From Caldilineales bacterium (GTDB taxonomy: Bacteria > Chloroflexota > Anaerolineae > JAAEKA01): a stretch of DNA of 64,000 bases. The position numbers were made by a program, and so were the translations under genes. This document shows, in pieces, positions 8,611 to 37,358 of the stretch; position 1 is the stretch's first letter, and each line of letters opens with the position of its first letter. The DNA is taken from NCBI GenBank assembly GCA_025055015.1, contig JANWYQ010000210.1:22223-86222 (forward strand). The letters run 5' to 3'. The notes beneath the pieces were generated by a model that saw only the letters and a list, made by a program, of their open reading frames with translations, was not told where the DNA came from and searched no databases.

Positions 8611-8638
8611 CAAAGGCCGTTACCAGGTTGGCGCGTTT

Positions 8639-24151: not shown

Positions 24152-27100
24152 GTGTTGCTCCCTCGTTGGAGACCAGAAAACGTGATCTATCGTGTCGAAG
24201 TGTCGCTCAGGCCAGGCCTCCCGGACGCGCGCGGGGCGGCGCTGCTGCGGCAGGCCGAGGCGCTGGGGGTGAGGGGGGTGCACTCCCTGGCAGTGGCCGA
24301 CCTGTACTTTCTGGCCGGCGAGCTGGACGAGGACGCCTTGCAGCGGCTGGTGGCCGAGCTCCTCCACGACCCGGTGGTGGAGGAGGCGCTGTGGCGACCT
24401 GTGTCGGCAGGCGCAGAGCCGGCAGCGCCCGCTGACGCCTGGTCCGTCGAGGTGACCTTGCTGCCCGGCGTGACCGACAGCGTGGCCGAGAGCCTGATGG
24501 CCGGCGCTGCGATGATCGGCGTCCACGGCCTGCGCCGGGCTGCCTCCGGCCGTCGCTATACGTTGACGGGGGACCTGAGCGAGGTGGACGTGCACCGAGT
24601 GGCCCGCGGCCTGTTGGCCAACGAGGTGATCCAGCGCTACTGGGTCAACCGGCCGGCGAGGCCGCCCTTCCTGGAGGATGGGCGCGACGGCGCGTCAGGG
24701 GAGGCAGATGGGGCGCCGTGGGTGGAGGTCATCCCCTTGCGGGAGGCGGACGACGCCGGCCTGCTGGCCATCAGCCAGGCGCGGCGGCTGGCCTTGGACC
24801 TGGCCGAGATGCGGGCGATCCAGGCCTACTTCCGGGCGGCGGCGCGCGAGCCCACCGACGTGGAGCTAGAGATGCTGGCCCAGACCTGGTCCGAGCACTG
24901 CGTCCACAAGACCTTCAAGGCCGTCATCGAGTACGTCGGACCGCCTCCGGGCCCGGTGGAGCCAACCAGCGCTCACCGGTCACCGCTTGCCGCTCAGCGA
25001 ATAGACGGCCTGCTCAAAACCTACATCCGCGCGGCCACGGAGAAGGTGGCCAAGCCCTGGGTGCGCTCTGCCTTCGTGGACAACGCCGGCATCGTGGCCT
25101 ACGACGACCGGTTCGACGTGGCCTTCAAGGTGGAGACCCACAACCATCCCTCGGCGTTGGAGCCCTTCGGCGGCGCCAACACCGGCGTGGGCGGCGTGGT
25201 CCGGGACATCATCGGCGTCAGCGCGCGGCCGATCGCCAACACCGACGTCCTGTTTTTCGGCCCGCGCGACCTGCCCTGGGAGCAGCTCCCGGCCGGCGTG
25301 TTGCACCCGCGGCGCATCGCCGACGGCGTGGTCGCCGGCATCGAGGACTACGGCAACAAGATGGGCATCCCCACGGTCAACGGCGCCATCTTCACCGACC
25401 CTGGCTACACGGCCAACCCGCTGGTGTTCTGCGGCTGCGTGGGCATCCTGCCTCACGGCTCCCACCGCACCCAGCCCCAGCCGGGCGATCTGGTGGTGGT
25501 GATCGGCGGCCGCACCGGCCGCGACGGCCTGCGCGGCGCTACCTTCTCCTCCATGGAGATGGACCACCAGACGGGGGAGATCGCCAGCAGCGCGGTGCAG
25601 ATCGGCCACCCGATCCACGAGAAGCAGGTGCTGGAAGCGGTGCTGCAGGCGCGGGACGAGGGGCTGTACAACGCCATCACCGACTGCGGCGCAGGCGGGC
25701 TCTCCTCGGCCATCGGCGAGATGGCCAAGGCGCTGGGCGCGGTGGTGCACCTGGAGCGGGCGCCGTTGAAGTACACCGGCCTGCGGCCGTGGGAGATCTG
25801 GCTCAGCGAGGCGCAGGAGCGGATGGTGCTGGCCGTGCCGCCCGCCCGATGGCCGCGCTTCCAGGCCATCTGCGCAGGGCTGGACGTGGAGGCCACGGCC
25901 TTGGGCGAGTTCACTGGCGATGGCCGTCTGCGCATCTTCTACGGCGAGCACCTGGTGGGCGACGTGGACGTGGCCTTCCTGCACGATGGCATCCCGCAGC
26001 GGCAGCTCAGGGCGGAGTGGCGCCCTGGTCAATGGTCAATGGTCAATGGTCAATGGCCAATGGTCAATGGCCGATGGTCAATGGCCAATGGTCAATGGCC
26101 GATGGTCAATGGCCAATGGTCAATGGCCAATTTGACGGAGGTGCTGGTGGCGCTGCTGGGCATGCCGGAGACGCGCAGCAAGGAGCCTGTGGTGCGGCAG
26201 TACGACCACGAGGTGCAGGGCGGCACCGTGGTCAAGCCCTTGGTGGGCGCGGGGAACGCCGGGCCCGGCGACGCCGCCGTCCTGATCCCGCTGGACGTCC
26301 TGCGTCGAGCGGCGAGCGGTGAACCGTCTGCGGTGAAGCGTGAGGCTGTGCGCGGGATCGCGTTGGCCGTCGGCGCCAACCCCTTCTACACGGCGCTGGA
26401 CCCCTACTGCATGGCCTGGGCGGCAGTGGACGAGGCGGTGCGCAACGTGGTGGCGGTGGGCGCGGACCCCGACCAGGTGTCCCTGCTGGACAACTTCTCC
26501 TGGGGCAATCCTAACCTGCCCGACCGGCTGGGCAGCCTGGTGCGCTGCGTGCAGGGCTGCCACGACGCGGCCGTGGCCTATGCCGCGCCTTTCATCAGCG
26601 GCAAGGACAGCCTGAACAACGAGTACACCGGCGCGGACGGCCAGAAGCACGCCATTCCCGGCACCCTGGTGATCTCGGCCCTGGGCATCGTGCCGGACGC
26701 CGGCCGCACCGTGACCATGGACCTGAAGCGCGCCGGCGACTGGCTGTACATCGTCGGCCTGACGCGCGGGGAGCTGGGCGGGTCGAGCTGGTTGCGCCGC
26801 TTCGGCGCCGCTGCAGTGGGCGTTCCGCCCCAGCCGCCCACGGACGCCCTCGACCTGTATCGCCGCTTGCACCGGGCTATCCGCCAGGGGCTAGTGCAGG
26901 CCTGCCACGACTGCTCCGAGGGAGGCCTGGCCGTGGCCGCGGCCGAGATGGCGCTGGCCGGCGGGCTCGGCCTGGAGCTGCGCCTGGCCGCGGTTCCCCG
27001 CACGGCCGAGGCCGACAGCGACGCCGTCGTCGCTTTCTGCGAGTCCCTGGGCCGGCTGCTGGTGGCCGTGCGCCCCTCCGCCTCCGACGCCTTCGAGGCC

Positions 27101-27235
27101 CTGCTGGCCGGCCACCCTGTGGCCCGCATCGGCCGCGTGCGCAGCGACAACAGGATCGTCGTGACAGGCCTAGGCGGCCAGCCGGTCATCGAAACCGATC
27201 TGACCGCCGTGGAAAAAGCCTGGCGCAGCGAGTGA
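24152..27235 (+). CDS. purL: FGAM synthase subunit PurL with two fused N-terminal PurS-like domains (PurS-PurS-PurL)
   Basis: Two ~85-aa PurS-like repeats followed by PurL motifs (SEHCVHKTF, DCGAGGLSSAIGEMA, duplicated AIRS-like halves). Contains an in-frame heptamer repeat (see repeat feature). Confidence 0.85.
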   Translation: MLLPRWRPENVIYRVEVSLRPGLPDARGAALLRQAEALGVRGVHSLAVADLYFLAGELDEDALQRLVAELLHDPVVEEALWRPVSAGAEPAAPADAWSVEVTLLPGVTDSVAESLMAGAAMIGVHGLRRAASGRRYTLTGDLSEVDVHRVARGLLANEVIQRYWVNRPARPPFLEDGRDGASGEADGAPWVEVIPLREADDAGLLAISQARRLALDLAEMRAIQAYFRAAAREPTDVELEMLAQTWSEHCVHKTFKAVIEYVGPPPGPVEPTSAHRSPLAAQRIDGLLKTYIRAATEKVAKPWVRSAFVDNAGIVAYDDRFDVAFKVETHNHPSALEPFGGANTGVGGVVRDIIGVSARPIANTDVLFFGPRDLPWEQLPAGVLHPRRIADGVVAGIEDYGNKMGIPTVNGAIFTDPGYTANPLVFCGCVGILPHGSHRTQPQPGDLVVVIGGRTGRDGLRGATFSSMEMDHQTGEIASSAVQIGHPIHEKQVLEAVLQARDEGLYNAITDCGAGGLSSAIGEMAKALGAVVHLERAPLKYTGLRPWEIWLSEAQERMVLAVPPARWPRFQAICAGLDVEATALGEFTGDGRLRIFYGEHLVGDVDVAFLHDGIPQRQLRAEWRPGQWSMVNGQWPMVNGRWSMANGQWPMVNGQWSMANLTEVLVALLGMPETRSKEPVVRQYDHEVQGGTVVKPLVGAGNAGPGDAAVLIPLDVLRRAASGEPSAVKREAVRGIALAVGANPFYTALDPYCMAWAAVDEAVRNVVAVGADPDQVSLLDNFSWGNPNLPDRLGSLVRCVQGCHDAAVAYAAPFISGKDSLNNEYTGADGQKHAIPGTLVISALGIVPDAGRTVTMDLKRAGDWLYIVGLTRGELGGSSWLRRFGAAAVGVPPQPPTDALDLYRRLHRAIRQGLVQACHDCSEGGLAVAAAEMALAGGLGLELRLAAVPRTAEADSDAVVAFCESLGRLLVAVRPSASDAFEALLAGHPVARIGRVRSDNRIVVTGLGGQPVIETDLTAVEKAWRSE
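26016..26120 (+). repeat. 15 x 7-bp tandem repeat (TGGTCAA/TGGCCAA/TGGCCGA), in frame within the purL inter-domain linker
   Basis: 105 bp of perfect 7-nt periodicity encoding GQWSMVN/GQWPMVN x5. Confidence 0.9.
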
Positions 27236-27320: not shown

Positions 27321-27348
27321 GGTTACCGTTCACCGCTCACCGTTCAGC
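27321..27348. repeat. Heptamer repeat GTTCACC-like (4 units) in the purL-purQ intergenic region
   Basis: ggttaccgttcaccgctcaccgttcagc. Confidence 0.55.
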
Positions 27349-31491: not shown

Positions 31492-31728
31492 ATGACAGTT
31501 ACTGTGTCTGTTTACGAGGCAAAGGCCCTGTTTTCTGAGCTTTTGGATCGCGTGGTCGCCGGCGAAGAGGTACTTATCGCCGATGCCGGGAAGCCTGTAG
31601 CCCGCCTGATGCCGTTCGTCGAGCAGCCGACACAAAGAACACCAGGCACGGCGATAGGCAAGATCACCATAGCCCCAGATTTCGACGATCCCTTGCCTGA
31701 CGAGATTTTGGACCTCTTCGAGGCATGA
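31492..31728 (+). CDS. Type II antitoxin, Phd/YefM-like
   Basis: MTVTVSVYEAKALFSELLDRV...PVARLMP fits the Phd/YefM fold. Stop overlaps the vapC start (ATGA). Confidence 0.55.
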   Translation: MTVTVSVYEAKALFSELLDRVVAGEEVLIADAGKPVARLMPFVEQPTQRTPGTAIGKITIAPDFDDPLPDEILDLFEA

Positions 31729-32111
31729 GAGCGTTGCTAGACACGCACGCGTTTCTGTGGTGGATCACCAATGATCCACGGCTAACTGCACGCGTGCAGA
31801 AGACCGTCCAGAACCCTGGAAACCTCATCTTCTTGAGCGCAGCTAGCGGATGGGAGCTTGCTATTAAAGCGAGCATCGGCAAACTTCATGTGTCTCAAGA
31901 TCTCGATACGTTTATCAGTGAACAGTTGACGCTCAACCGCATTGATGTGCTGCCCGTACTGATGAGCCACGCTCTCTTCGTGCGCAAATTGCCCGCGCAC
32001 CACAGAGACCCCTTTGATCGTTTGTTGGTGGCCCAGAGCCTTGTTGAAGGGATGCCCCTGATAACAAGCGATCCGCTAATCGCGAAATACTCCGTGCAGG
32101 TGATCTGGTAG
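31725..32111 (+). CDS. vapC: PIN-domain toxin VapC
   Basis: LLDTHAFLWW..., SAASGWELAIK, and ITSD motifs of VapC. Confidence 0.75.
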   Translation: MRALLDTHAFLWWITNDPRLTARVQKTVQNPGNLIFLSAASGWELAIKASIGKLHVSQDLDTFISEQLTLNRIDVLPVLMSHALFVRKLPAHHRDPFDRLLVAQSLVEGMPLITSDPLIAKYSVQVIW

Positions 32112-33464: not shown

Positions 33465-34037
33465 ATGTACGATGGGCCGGCAGAGCTGTTGACCTACTTC
33501 CCGGACTTCCGCTACTGGCTGGTGGATCTCAGCCAGTTCACCGACCAGGAGGTCCGCGGCGAGGCGGTCTTGCGGCTGGTCCTCCTGGCCATGAAGCATG
33601 TCAACGACCCAGACGGCATCCGTCGGGTCTGCGAGATCTTCGACCTAATGGAGCGGCTGTGGCAGACGGAGAGCACGGCGGAGGTCGTAGCCTTGGTCTT
33701 GCGCTATCTCGCCACAGGCAGCACCACCATGACGGAAGCAGACCTGCGAGACGCCATGGAGCAACATTGGCCCGAAGGAGTGACGATTATGGCAACGATA
33801 GCAGACAATTGGTTGCGGCAGGGCATTCAGCAAGGCATTCTGCAAGGGCGACGTGAGGGCTTGATTGACGCGATCAGCCTGGGCATCCGCCTGCGCTTCG
33901 GCAAAGAAGGGCTGCCGCTCCTGCCCGAAATCCGCAGGATCGAGGACATCGCGGTGTTGGAGGCCATCTACGACAGCTTTGAAACCATCGAAAGCCTCGA
34001 CGACCTGCGGCGCATCTACGCCCGACCCCAGCCATGA
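33465..34037 (+). pseudogene. Rpn/YhgA-like putative transposase, C-terminal portion only (DUF4351-like); N-terminal PD-(D/E)XK domain missing
   Basis: C-terminal ...WLRQGIQQGILQGRREGLIDAISLGIRLRFG... resembles Rpn-family tails. The ORF is ~190 aa versus ~300 for intact members. Wedged between purD and purM. Confidence 0.4.
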
Positions 34038-35057: not shown

Positions 35058-35675
35058 ATGCCCCCTCGCCTCGCCGTTCTCATCTCCGGCAGCGGCACCA
35101 ACCTGCAGGCCATCATGGACGCCATCGCAGCTGGCCGGCTCGACGCACAGATCGTGGTCGTGGTGTCCAACCGCCGCGACGCCTATGGCCTGGTGCGCGC
35201 GGGGCGGGCCGGCATTCCTACCCTCTACGTTCCCCTCAAGCCCTACACCGAGGCAGGCCGGCCGCGCGCGGACTACGACGCCGACCTGGCCGAGCGGGTG
35301 GCGGCCTACGCGCCCGACCTGGTGGTGTTGGCCGGCTGGATGCACGTGCTCAGCCCGTCCTTCCTGGATCGCTTTCCCGGCCGCGTTCTCAACCTGCACC
35401 CGGCGCTGCCCGGCCAGTTCCCCGGCACCCATGCCATCCAGCGCGCGTTCGAAGCTTTCCGGCGGGGGGAGATTGACCACACCGGCGTCATGGTCCACTG
35501 GGTGGTGCCCGAGGTGGATGCCGGGCCGGTGATCGCCAGCGAGGTTGTCCCCATCCTCCCCACGGACACGGTGGACGACCTGGAGGCGCGTGTCCACGCC
35601 GTCGAGCATCGCCTGTTGGTGGAGGCTATCCGCCGCGCGTTGGGGGAGCGGTGGTCGGTGAACGGTGAACGGTGA
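35058..35675 (+). CDS. purN: GAR formyltransferase PurN
   Basis: LISGSGTNL, NLHPALPG..G, HxV..ExDxGP motifs. C-terminal tail (GERWSVNGER) is encoded by heptamer repeats. Confidence 0.85.
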   Translation: MPPRLAVLISGSGTNLQAIMDAIAAGRLDAQIVVVVSNRRDAYGLVRAGRAGIPTLYVPLKPYTEAGRPRADYDADLAERVAAYAPDLVVLAGWMHVLSPSFLDRFPGRVLNLHPALPGQFPGTHAIQRAFEAFRRGEIDHTGVMVHWVVPEVDAGPVIASEVVPILPTDTVDDLEARVHAVEHRLLVEAIRRALGERWSVNGER

Positions 35676-35692
35676 ACGGTAAACGCTGAACG
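35654..35692. repeat. Heptamer repeat GGTGAAC x ~5 spanning the purN stop codon
   Basis: ggtggtcggtgaacggtgaacggtgaacggtaaacgctgaacgg. Confidence 0.7.
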
Positions 35693-35693
35693 G

Positions 35694-35935
35694 TTTTTGT
35701 GGAGTGCGCACCCCCAGGTGCGCACGGGGGTTGGGTTTTGCGAAGTGCGCCCTCCAGGTGCGCGCCAGCCCCTAGGTTTTCGGAGTGCGCACCCCTAGGT
35801 GCGCAGGGGGGCTGGGTTTTGTGGAGTGCGCTCCCTGGGTCCGCGCCAGCCCCTAGGTTTTCGGAGTGCGCCCCCCAGGTGAGCACGGAAAGGTTGCACC
35901 CCTAGGTGCGCACGGGAGGGTTGCCCCCGTCTTGC
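35694..35935. repeat. Tandem array of ~6 degenerate 41-bp units, each with a 9-bp GC hairpin (GTGCGCACC-cccA-GGTGCGCAC) and a TTTT tract; REP/BIME-like
   Basis: Units TTTTGyGGAGTGCGCnCCCCyAGGTGCGCrsGGGsyGG repeated head-to-tail between convergent purN and the exonuclease gene. Confidence 0.75.
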
Positions 35936-35945
35936 GAACCCCGGA

Positions 35946-37358
35946 TCAGCTCGACGGATCTGCCCTGCTGGCGTCCCCCGTCGCCTCCGGCCGCCGGCCG
36001 GCCAGCTTGGCCTCGATGCGCGCCAGGCGATGGCGCAGCTCGGCCAGGACTTGCTCGCGGTCGGGTCCGGCCGGCTGGCCTTGCGCCAGGTGCAGGGCCC
36101 ACAGCGTCCACTTGCGCGCGGCCGCCAGGTCCCCCTCCCGCCACTCGGCGTGCTTGGCCAGCTCCACGTACGGGGTCAGATCGGGGCCGGACACGCTGGT
36201 GATCCACTCCAGCCACACCTCTGCGGCCTCGGCGTGCCGTCCCTGGCGCTTGAGCAGGTCGCCCAGCCGGCTCAAGGCGGCGCGGCGCAGCTCCGGCGCG
36301 AGGGACGAGGCCAGCGCCCGGCGATAGGCCGCCTCGCTGCGCGCCAGCCAGCCCAGCTCCTCGTACGCGCGGCCCAGGCTCACGCCATCGGCCGGATGCG
36401 AGGGGAAAAGGATCTCAGCGTCGGCGCCCCCGTCGAACGGCGCGCACAGGATCGCCGCCAAAGGCGCCATGCTGAGCACGTCCTCCCGGTTGTGGTAGAA
36501 GACCGGCGCCACCACGTCGAAGTTCCCCGTGGCCGCGTAGTCCCGGTAAAGGGAGGGGATCAGCCAGCCGGGCACGTCCTCCTGGCTGCGCCGGAAGGCC
36601 AGGATGTCCCGCTCCAGCGCCGACATGGCGCAGGAGGGCAGGCGCCAGCGCCAGCGCTGCCGGGCCAGGGGCAGCAGGTCCAGGTGGGGCAGGCCGTGCA
36701 GCGAGGAGGGCAGGCGGTTCAGCGCAAAGCGGGTCGCCAGCAGGGGCGCGTCGAACGCGCGGCCGTTGAAGCTCACCAGGCCGGCGCAGCGGCCCAACAG
36801 CTCGGCCACCACGTGCAGCAGCGCGCGCTCCTCCGCCGGGCTGCGCATGAACACCTGGCGCACCACGAAGGCGCTCGCCTCGCCCGCCGTCGGCTCGAAG
36901 GCGCCGATCCCCACCATGAAGGCCAGCGTGCCGGCCCCGCCCGACAGGCCCGTGGTCTCGGTGTCCAAGAAGGCTGCCCGGCGCAGCTCGAAGCCGGCCG
37001 GGTCGGCGCCGTGCGCGCAGGCCGCCACCGCCTGGCCGGAGATGCGCAGCAGTGCGTCCAGCGACACACCCCCGCGCACGGTGGACAGCGGATACGCCGC
37101 CTCCACCACCAGACAAGGCCCGTAGGGGGTGAGCACCTCCTGGCCCGGCGCAGGCGACGAGTGGGGCCGGTCTCCGACGCCGGTCCAGTTTCCCCGGTGG
37201 TCGTGCACCTGCTGCGGAGGGGTTGCCGGGGGCGCAGCCTTCGGCGGAGGCGACTTCAGACCGGCGACCCCGCGCTGCACGCCCAGGTGCTGCAGGCGGC
37301 GCAGTCGCTCGGCGACGTTGTCGGCGGGGCGGCGGCTGCTCGGTGGCTCGTCGCTCAT
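35946..37358 (-). CDS. RNase-H-fold 3'-5' exonuclease-like protein (YprB family) with C-terminal TPR repeats
   Basis: FLDTETTGLSGG exonuclease motif I, then FNGRAFDAPLL; C-terminal helical TPR-like repeats. Confidence 0.55.
   Translation of the reverse strand: MSDEPPSSRRPADNVAERLRRLQHLGVQRGVAGLKSPPPKAAPPATPPQQVHDHRGNWTGVGDRPHSSPAPGQEVLTPYGPCLVVEAAYPLSTVRGGVSLDALLRISGQAVAACAHGADPAGFELRRAAFLDTETTGLSGGAGTLAFMVGIGAFEPTAGEASAFVVRQVFMRSPAEERALLHVVAELLGRCAGLVSFNGRAFDAPLLATRFALNRLPSSLHGLPHLDLLPLARQRWRWRLPSCAMSALERDILAFRRSQEDVPGWLIPSLYRDYAATGNFDVVAPVFYHNREDVLSMAPLAAILCAPFDGGADAEILFPSHPADGVSLGRAYEELGWLARSEAAYRRALASSLAPELRRAALSRLGDLLKRQGRHAEAAEVWLEWITSVSGPDLTPYVELAKHAEWREGDLAAARKWTLWALHLAQGQPAGPDREQVLAELRHRLARIEAKLAGRRPEATGDASRADPSS

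Follow-up and report, generated by a model that had tools for sequence, protein, structure and literature searches.

In the 64-kb stretch of DNA analysed here (the window), a tandem array of hairpin units occupies positions 35694-35935, between the 3' ends of two convergent genes. On the plus strand, purN (phosphoribosylglycinamide formyltransferase, 35058-35675; Pfam Formyl_trans_N, E 1.4e-53; called gene L001 11025-11642) closes a long pur cluster and points with its 3' end towards the array. On the minus strand, an RNase_H_2 and TPR gene (YprB-like, 35946-37358; Pfam RNase_H_2, E 1.8e-32) is the last member of a gene block that is syntenic in relatives. This location had been given in an earlier note on the same DNA and was confirmed by gene calls and Pfam. 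The array is abutted by a heptamer tandem repeat, (CGGTGAA)n at 35649-35694 on the plus strand (TRF period 7, 5.6 copies, 87%), which encodes the final codons and the stop of purN and is a family distinct from the hairpin unit. Two ORFs, at 35699-35905 (+) and 35626-35886 (-), were considered as peptide genes and rejected as repeat artefacts; no gene is called there in the deposited record.

At 99.8-99.9% identity, the window corresponds to contig JAVQXR010000002.1 in the MAG GCA_033578055.1, which is labelled as an Anaerolineae bacterium. The two differ by SNPs (0.05-0.25%), one 1-bp indel near 8636 and a 28-bp repeat difference, and they are two strains or assemblies of one species. Non-synonymous SNPs separate purN of the window from purN of the deposited record. 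The array itself is base-for-base equal in both, the nearest SNPs lying at 35358 and 37207, and because the same array is found in this independent 99.8%-identical assembly it is no assembly artefact. Variation of copy number between strains, which the earlier note had proposed to check, was not seen in the two strains compared, and the array is stable at the divergence between them.

The 28-bp difference lies in another repeat. A heptamer/14-mer repeat (TGGTCAA/TGGCCAA, 7.6 copies of 14 nt) at 26026-26131 is inside ORF 24152-27235 (+), which is purS-purL-like, has 1027 aa and is read in frame through the repeat in the window. JAVQXR010000002.1 has 28 bp fewer at this repeat, which results in a frameshift and in called ORFs of 641 and 370 aa. 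This is either microsatellite frame switching of an essential purine gene at the strain level or a repeat collapse in the MAG assembly. The heptamer families (CGGTGAA)n and (AATGGTC)n occur at several sites of the contig, mostly intergenic (window 35649-35694 and 27325-27346; L082 13598-13644; L081 5866-5892 and 7222-7275), and presumably resemble the STRR heptamer repeats of cyanobacteria. The purine cluster is also interrupted by a PhdYeFM/PIN toxin-antitoxin pair and a YhgA/Transposase_31-like (PD-(D/E)XK) gene (about 31492-32111 and 33465-34037), and these insertions sit between purF/purD and purD/purM.

Anatomy of the array

The whole of 35694-35935 is filled by the tandem repeat. TRF gave a period of 40 (4.6 copies, 70% matches, score 167) and, with a far higher score, a period of 81 (2.3 copies, 87% matches, score 292); a repeat search found two 81-nt copies of 85% identity. 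The array had been described as about six hairpin units of 41 bp. The tandem array is real and has six units, but its true repeat is an 81-bp dimer in which two unit types, A and B, alternate. On the plus strand the order is A1, B1, A2 and B2, followed by a truncated A3 and a 5'-truncated A4. Type A is composed of GYGGA, the hairpin GTGCGCACC-CCYA-GGTGCGCAC, a G-rich tail (GGGGGYTGGG) and TTTT, and type B of a degenerate hairpin, a C-rich tail (GCCAGCCCCTAGG) and TTTT. Units are 83-88% identical inside one type and 67-69% identical between types; the divergence is thus 12-17% and 31-33%, respectively, and not the 5-15% estimated earlier. B1 and B2 are 83% identical, and their tails are identical.

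Unit A1 (35699-35739, +) begins with the tag GTGGA and has a perfect 9-bp hairpin, GTGCGCACC-CCCA-GGTGCGCAC, at 35704-35725, followed by the tail GGGGGTTGGG and TTTT; its MFE is -17.9 kcal/mol and its nhmmer E-value 1.4e-8. Unit B1 (35740-35780, +) has the tag GCGAA, a degenerate hairpin at 35745-35765, a C-rich tail with CCAGCCCC at 35765-35772, and TTTT. Besides one mismatch, the B1 hairpin contains two G-U wobbles, permitted on the plus strand only, and it folds at -14.2 kcal/mol on the plus strand and at -11.1 kcal/mol (z +1.0) on the minus strand. Unit A2 (35781-35820, +) has the tag TCGGA, an 8-bp hairpin at 35786-35805 with the loop CCTA, the tail GGGGGGCTGGG with GGGGCTGG at 35808-35815, and TTTT. 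Unit B2 (35821-35861, +) keeps the tag GTGGA and a B1-type tail, and its hairpin has decayed, with two mismatches and the canonical stem unformed. Unit A3 (35862-35895, +) is truncated and decayed to GTGCGCCCC-CCA-GGTGAGCAC (nhmmer E 1.7e-5; -7.4 kcal/mol, z +0.5) and no longer forms the hairpin. Unit A4 (35896-35935, +) is 5'-truncated to GCACC-CCTA-GGTGCGCAC, a 6-bp remnant, and carries a second small stem, GGGAGGGTTGCCCCCGTC; it is 95% identical to A1 over 21 nt in the repeat search and closes the array 10 nt from the stop of the RNase_H_2 gene. A near-intact 9-bp/CCCA hairpin is therefore kept in two of the six units (A1 and A2) and has decayed in the others, so the earlier statement that each unit contains the palindrome does not hold: it is perfect in A1, 8 bp in A2, a 6-bp remnant in A4, defective in B1 and absent from B2 and A3.

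All six units lie head-to-tail: on the plus strand each has its loop in the same polarity (CCNA), the tag on the 5' side and the T run on the 3' side. T runs of 4-5 nt, confined to the plus strand, lie 10-13 nt past the simple stem. The segments between the hairpins are 18-19 nt long and are two alternating sequences, themselves repeated, so that the array has no unique spacers, as the earlier note had said. The palindromic 8-mer GTGCGCAC occurs five times in 64 kb, four of them inside 203 bp of the array, where about 0.008 would be expected.

Copies elsewhere on the contig, in metagenomes and in relatives

For the copy search the contig was extended by 8 kb on each side of the window. In the 64-kb window, nhmmer with --max and a five-unit profile matched within the array only. 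A 20-nt pattern with up to three mismatches gave three hits there, all in the array, against 2.3 expected by chance, and is uninformative alone. A second array of the hairpin was found at L082 15610-15840, about 2.4 kb past the right end of the window and about 30 kb from array 1. It comprises three copies of 54 nt (91% match) and one solitary copy, and its hairpin is GTTCGCACC-CCCA-GGTGCGAAC; the 14-nt inner stem and loop is exactly as in array 1, and stem position 3 shows a compensatory change from G-C to T-A. The source contig thus carries two clusters (6 and 4 copies) in the approximately 80 kb examined. The earlier note had proposed a search of the genome for other copies and had taken uniqueness, together with read-through of transcripts, as evidence against a REP-type element or terminator; with a second array on the contig, the unit is not unique to its locus. 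Array 2 lies between two co-directional DAHP-synthase paralogues and may mark the junction of the DAHP-synthase duplication. These paralogues (L082 14564-16868, window-equivalent about 65.4-67.7 kb) are arranged in tandem in an aromatic amino-acid cluster.

The exact pattern GGAGTGCGCNCCCN{2,3}GGTGCGC was also run against 185,579 species-representative genomes. This search gave 20 single hits in unrelated taxa, which is the chance level, and none of the 20 had the A1 loop or flanks; the source genome is absent from this collection. Either the hairpin family is narrow or the exact-match pattern is too strict. The same exact pattern scanned against metagenome contigs gave 49 loci, mostly chance matches or homologous coding stretches. 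The exact 23-mer GGAGTGCGCACCCCCAGGTGCGC of A1 was present in five metagenome contigs (L049, L061, L067, L068 and L070; GC 62-67%) with unrelated flanks. These five are identical to A1 at all four free positions of the pattern, for which the expectation is roughly below 0.1 among about 30 independent hits. A second, diverged copy lies 75-125 nt away in the same orientation in three of the five, and L061 has an inverted doublet. The short-read contig L068 starts inside a hairpin copy, as expected of repeated DNA. The genes neighbouring the copies are housekeeping genes (RNase J, DnaJ/MerR, a methyltransferase, a radical SAM protein and gltD), and tblastx of the five contigs against the source contig found no genes in common. 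The named homologues of the gltD-like protein of L070 come solely from Anaerolineae MAGs, and on account of these source names L070 was assigned to the Anaerolineae; in the Anaerolineae contig other than the source contig, one hairpin cluster was found in 12.7 kb. A scan of viral contigs for the hairpin pattern gave 0 hits.

In L049 (Ga0170475_126984491, 250-440), the hairpin copy is bracketed by inverted heptamer arrays, with (GGGTTTA)n to its left and (CCCTAAA)n to its right. These TTTAGGG-like brackets suggest that hairpin copies and heptamer arrays are in some way linked in these genomes.

Relatives of the locus differ in whether they carry the hairpin. In a relative whose RNase_H_2 gene is 80% identical, a hairpin lies about 55 nt past the stop and agrees with A1 at every position of a 30-nt stretch; in three samples of this relative the contig breaks inside the hairpin, and in a fourth it ends about 28 nt before it. 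In an 81%-identity relative the 165 nt past the RNase_H_2 stop contain no hairpin, and in relatives at 60-63% identity no member of the family was found in 10-21 kb each. The block ArsA-RodZ-MiaB-MerR-DUF1232-helicase_C_3-Rce1-RNase_H_2 is conserved (L084, L086, L088 and L027) and ends exactly at the array. In the 60-63% relatives it is followed by SCP2/Fe-ADH/AFOR or a SAF-domain gene, in contrast to the convergent pur cluster found here. Since the conserved block of these relatives ends at the RNase_H_2 gene, the array sits at a synteny break. The idea that it acts as a recombination hotspot, also raised in the earlier note, receives circumstantial support from this break with the approximately 60% relatives; against it, copy number is equal in the two strains, unlike that of the heptamer repeat.

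An independent pair of filled and empty sites was found between gltD and EamA. In L089 and L090 this spacer is 295 nt long and contains two hairpins and a duplicated gltD 3' end (CTCGTAGGGGCGAGGC), whereas in an 89%-identity relative it is 41 nt long and free of hairpins. The comparison of such filled and empty sites points to gain or loss of the hairpin, probably followed by reiteration together with flanking DNA, and not to a conserved regulatory site.

Folding, termination and rival explanations

The core of the hairpin is a 9-bp stem, GTGCGCACC/GGTGCGCAC, with a near-invariant CCCA loop and usually GNGGA 5' of the stem. We aligned 19 hairpin copies and scored them against a 12-bp stem. The inner nine pairs hold in nearly all of the copies and the outer three (GGA/TCC) in some. 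At pair 12-29, 12 copies have GC, 3 have UA, 1 has AU and 1 has CG, which amounts to three compensatory variants independent of one another. At pair 11-30, UA occurs in 9 copies and UG in 7, and the wobble is legal only on the strand with the CCCA loop. Seven cells were changed on both sides, a number reached by 0 of 500 shuffles. This pattern, mainly through one variable pair, is better explained by one strand folding, as ssDNA or RNA, than by a dyad site in double-stranded DNA. The tag GTGG lies 1 nt 5' of the stem in 5 of the 19 copies (A1, B2, L022, L049 and L067a), and the other copies have GAGG, GCGG, TCGG or GCGA; the consensus is GNGGA, which resembles GT[AG]G loosely. Searches of Rfam 15 with array 1 gave int-alpA as the best match, at 19.7 bits against a cut-off of 35.8 (E 0.19). 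Nothing was found for array 2 in an E-value scan, or in the whole window at the gathering threshold.

The array could be a selected RNA element, that is, a stack of intrinsic terminators and/or 3'-protective hairpins of the pur operon, and possibly of the RNase_H_2 gene too, built in situ by duplicating the purN terminator. It directly follows purN, with which the pur cluster ends, and has convergent genes on its two sides; as in intrinsic terminators, GC-rich stems and T runs follow the last gene of an operon on its sense strand, here after each unit. The G-U wobbles favour folding of the plus strand, and in array 2 and L067, too, the strand with the CCCA loop is sense to the gene upstream. 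One structure resembles a terminator, a composite stem in which CCAGCCCC of the B1 tail (35765-35772) pairs with GGGGCTGG of the A2 tail (35808-35815) around hairpin A2, followed by GUUUU. The composite (35762-35822) has -31.6 kcal/mol and z -2.3 and is present in the MFE structure of the whole region; 35765-35815 is the sole stem with GTTTT directly after it. However, a scan of 35300-36300 for the terminator consensus (a GC-rich stem with a T-rich run, at least 5 of 8, within 0-2 nt) gave 0 sites on both strands, and the T runs have only 4-5 nt and stand 10-13 nt away from the simple stems. The minus strand has no T runs, array 2 has none either, and the hairpin pair of L070/L089 is antisense to both of its neighbour genes, so the stacked bidirectional terminator envisaged in the earlier note is not borne out. 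Half of the units have decayed without compensatory repair, and the orthologous sites of relatives lack the hairpin. Folded as a whole, the plus strand of the region is no better than shuffles (z -0.67); the minus strand gives z -2.7, to which little weight is attached in a context of 69% GC. On balance, we regard a selected RNA element as unlikely.

The other explanations fare worse. The GTGCGCAC palindromes, spaced alternately by 13-14 and 27 bp, might be double-stranded binding sites for a dimeric protein such as a regulator or a nucleoid protein, or a centromere-like site. Since GTGCGCAC is a perfect 8-bp palindrome, each hairpin can also be read as two direct dyad copies, and the near-invariance of the inner stem and loop across contigs is what sequence-specific recognition predicts. 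Yet the T-G wobbles in 7 of the 19 copies would correspond to A-C mismatches on the opposite strand of the dyad, the three compensatory changes preserve pairing while altering sequence, and the ninth pair (C-G) extends inverted, not direct, symmetry. The copies lie at gene 3' ends or within operons and not at promoters, with no promoter-like site present, and no DNA-binding gene accompanies them; binding sites of this kind are quite improbable. A purely local tandem duplication, with similarity elsewhere by chance, would agree with the confinement of matches to the array within the 64-kb window and with the chance-level single hits in representative genomes. The exact inner stem and loop of array 2 with its compensatory outer change, the five independent metagenome contexts and the presence of the same 30 nt at the corresponding gene end of a relative already contradict this reading, which we consider very improbable. 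A degenerate CRISPR or other spacer-bearing array is equally contradicted and scarcely credible: the repeats are regularly spaced and partly palindromic, but the 'spacers' of 18-19 nt are themselves repeated in two alternating types, no cas genes occur in Pfam calls over about 62 kb of the source contig, and viral contigs contain no matches. The earlier note had likewise judged the array not to be CRISPR.

Relation to known repeats and proposed origin

REPs are palindromes of 20-40 nt whose stem foot carries a GT[AG]G or CGTC tag. As a rule they are abundant, in many cases they are linked to a RAYT, and they form inverted pairs or BIMEs (PMC2817692, PMC3733652, PMC6006769). The definition that we used takes a stem of 7-20 bp, a loop of 2-5 nt and, following PMC6006769, GT[AG]G or CGTC within 0-2 nt of the stem foot. 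The palindrome found here has a 9-bp stem, a 4-nt loop and -17.9 kcal/mol (A1), with compensatory changes over 19 copies. Like REPs, including GTAG-23 of Thermomicrobium roseum and Roseiflexus castenholzii (PMC3733652, PMC6006769, PMC2817692), it is a GC-rich hairpin of 22-28 nt with a 9-bp stem and a 4-nt loop, and its copies are extragenic, following the 3' end of a gene or separating two co-directional genes. Four G-rich nucleotides, in some copies GTGG, precede the foot of the stem at a distance of 1 nt, and the copies occur as singletons, an inverted doublet and tandem clusters with flanking DNA, patchily in related genomes. Tandem reiteration of REPs together with flanking DNA has been described, as has clustering at few loci in the Chloroflexi member T. 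roseum, where the REPs likewise lie inside small GC palindromes (PMC3733652). The hairpin shares this clustering at few loci with T. roseum, GTAG-23 having been compared by description and not by consensus sequence.

The differences from classical REPs are equally plain. There are two clusters in about 80 kb here, compared with more than 100 copies per genome in classical REPs. The tag is a degenerate GNGGA, neither GTAG nor CGTC. No RAYT (Y1_Tnp) was found in the Pfam calls at record positions 26.9-47.6, 58.7-79.7 and 85.4-106.6 kb (about 62 kb), or beside the copies in other contigs. The units of the array are head-to-tail, an arrangement that is reported to be rare for tagged REPs (PMC3733652). 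The earlier note had called the array REP-like and BIME-like. The first term stands in a functional, descriptive sense, given the second array on the contig and the exact copies at unrelated intergenic sites of Anaerolineae-type contigs. The second has to be dropped, because all units are head-to-tail and BIMEs alternate in orientation (PMC2817692). With the BIMEs of E. coli (Y and Z REPs, including the tandem arrays of BIME-2) the array shares two alternating subtypes with alternating linkers, a tandem arrangement and a position between convergent genes; its units are nevertheless all direct in loop, tag and T run. The BOX elements of Streptococcus pneumoniae are also intergenic hairpin modules of about 45 bp (tandem boxB) that lie head-to-tail in variable number, and they have defined boxA and boxC end modules. 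No terminal modules were seen in the array, and BOX is unrelated in taxon and in sequence. A literature search with GTGCGCACC returned only primers and other unrelated uses, and we found no paper on this hairpin sequence or linking Anaerolineae with REPINs.

The array is probably a cluster, amplified in tandem and by now decayed in part, of hairpins from a low-copy, lineage-restricted, REP-like extragenic family of uncultured Anaerolineae (Chloroflexota). Because the hairpin recurs at other intergenic sites of Anaerolineae, we take it for an ordinary REP-like repeat and neither a purpose-built terminator stack nor a CRISPR array. By REP-like we mean, with the same reasonable degree of confidence, that it would work as a REP cluster; membership of a RAYT-mobilised family is only putative.

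Under this REP-like reading, the hairpin core would fold in single-stranded form, as ssDNA or RNA, on the strand with the CCCA loop. Intergenic sites would gain and lose copies about as fast as species diverge, the copies being mobilised perhaps by a RAYT-like HUH enzyme or by some other process. A resident copy would then be reiterated head-to-tail with local flanking DNA, the reiterated unit being the 81-bp dimer in array 1, 54 bp in array 2, and about 125 bp including the 3' end of the upstream gene in the other Anaerolineae contig. The block that was presumably duplicated at purN is a hairpin within an older GC stem with a T run (CCAGCCCC...GGGGCTGG-TTTT). We would suggest, with low confidence, that the older stem was purN's own terminator, that a hairpin copy came to lie inside it and that the composite was later duplicated. 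Transcripts of purN could end in, or run through, several stable hairpins, where 3'-exonucleases or RNA polymerase might be slowed. REPs of E. coli can slow 3'-exonucleases or RNA polymerase. By this analogy a side effect of the array may be to stabilise the 3' ends of mRNAs, through 3'-end protection and pausing. The available comparisons favour selfish or neutral spread, with amplification by slippage or unequal exchange, over selection for termination.

A bolder proposal is that GNGGA with GTGCGCACC-CCCA-GGTGCGCAC defines an undescribed mobile or self-amplifying family of the Anaerolineae, which would insert into pre-existing terminator stems and expand head-to-tail with its co-duplicated flanks. 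A putative divergent HUH/Y1 transposase, or another system, would read the inner stem and loop on one strand, and arrays would mark rearrangement junctions such as that of purN and RNase_H_2. We put this forward tentatively and hold it to be rather doubtful.

The hairpin array opens no long-standing question and will not surprise a specialist. It is nevertheless a structure open to mis-annotation as a terminator or as a CRISPR-like array, and the repeat breaks short-read assemblies at the hairpin, as in the three samples of the 80% relative. The filled and empty gltD-EamA sites provide a clean case for studying the arrival and amplification of a hairpin. Small palindromic repeats are poorly catalogued outside Proteobacteria, and the hairpin described here adds a sequence-defined family for uncultured Anaerolineae.
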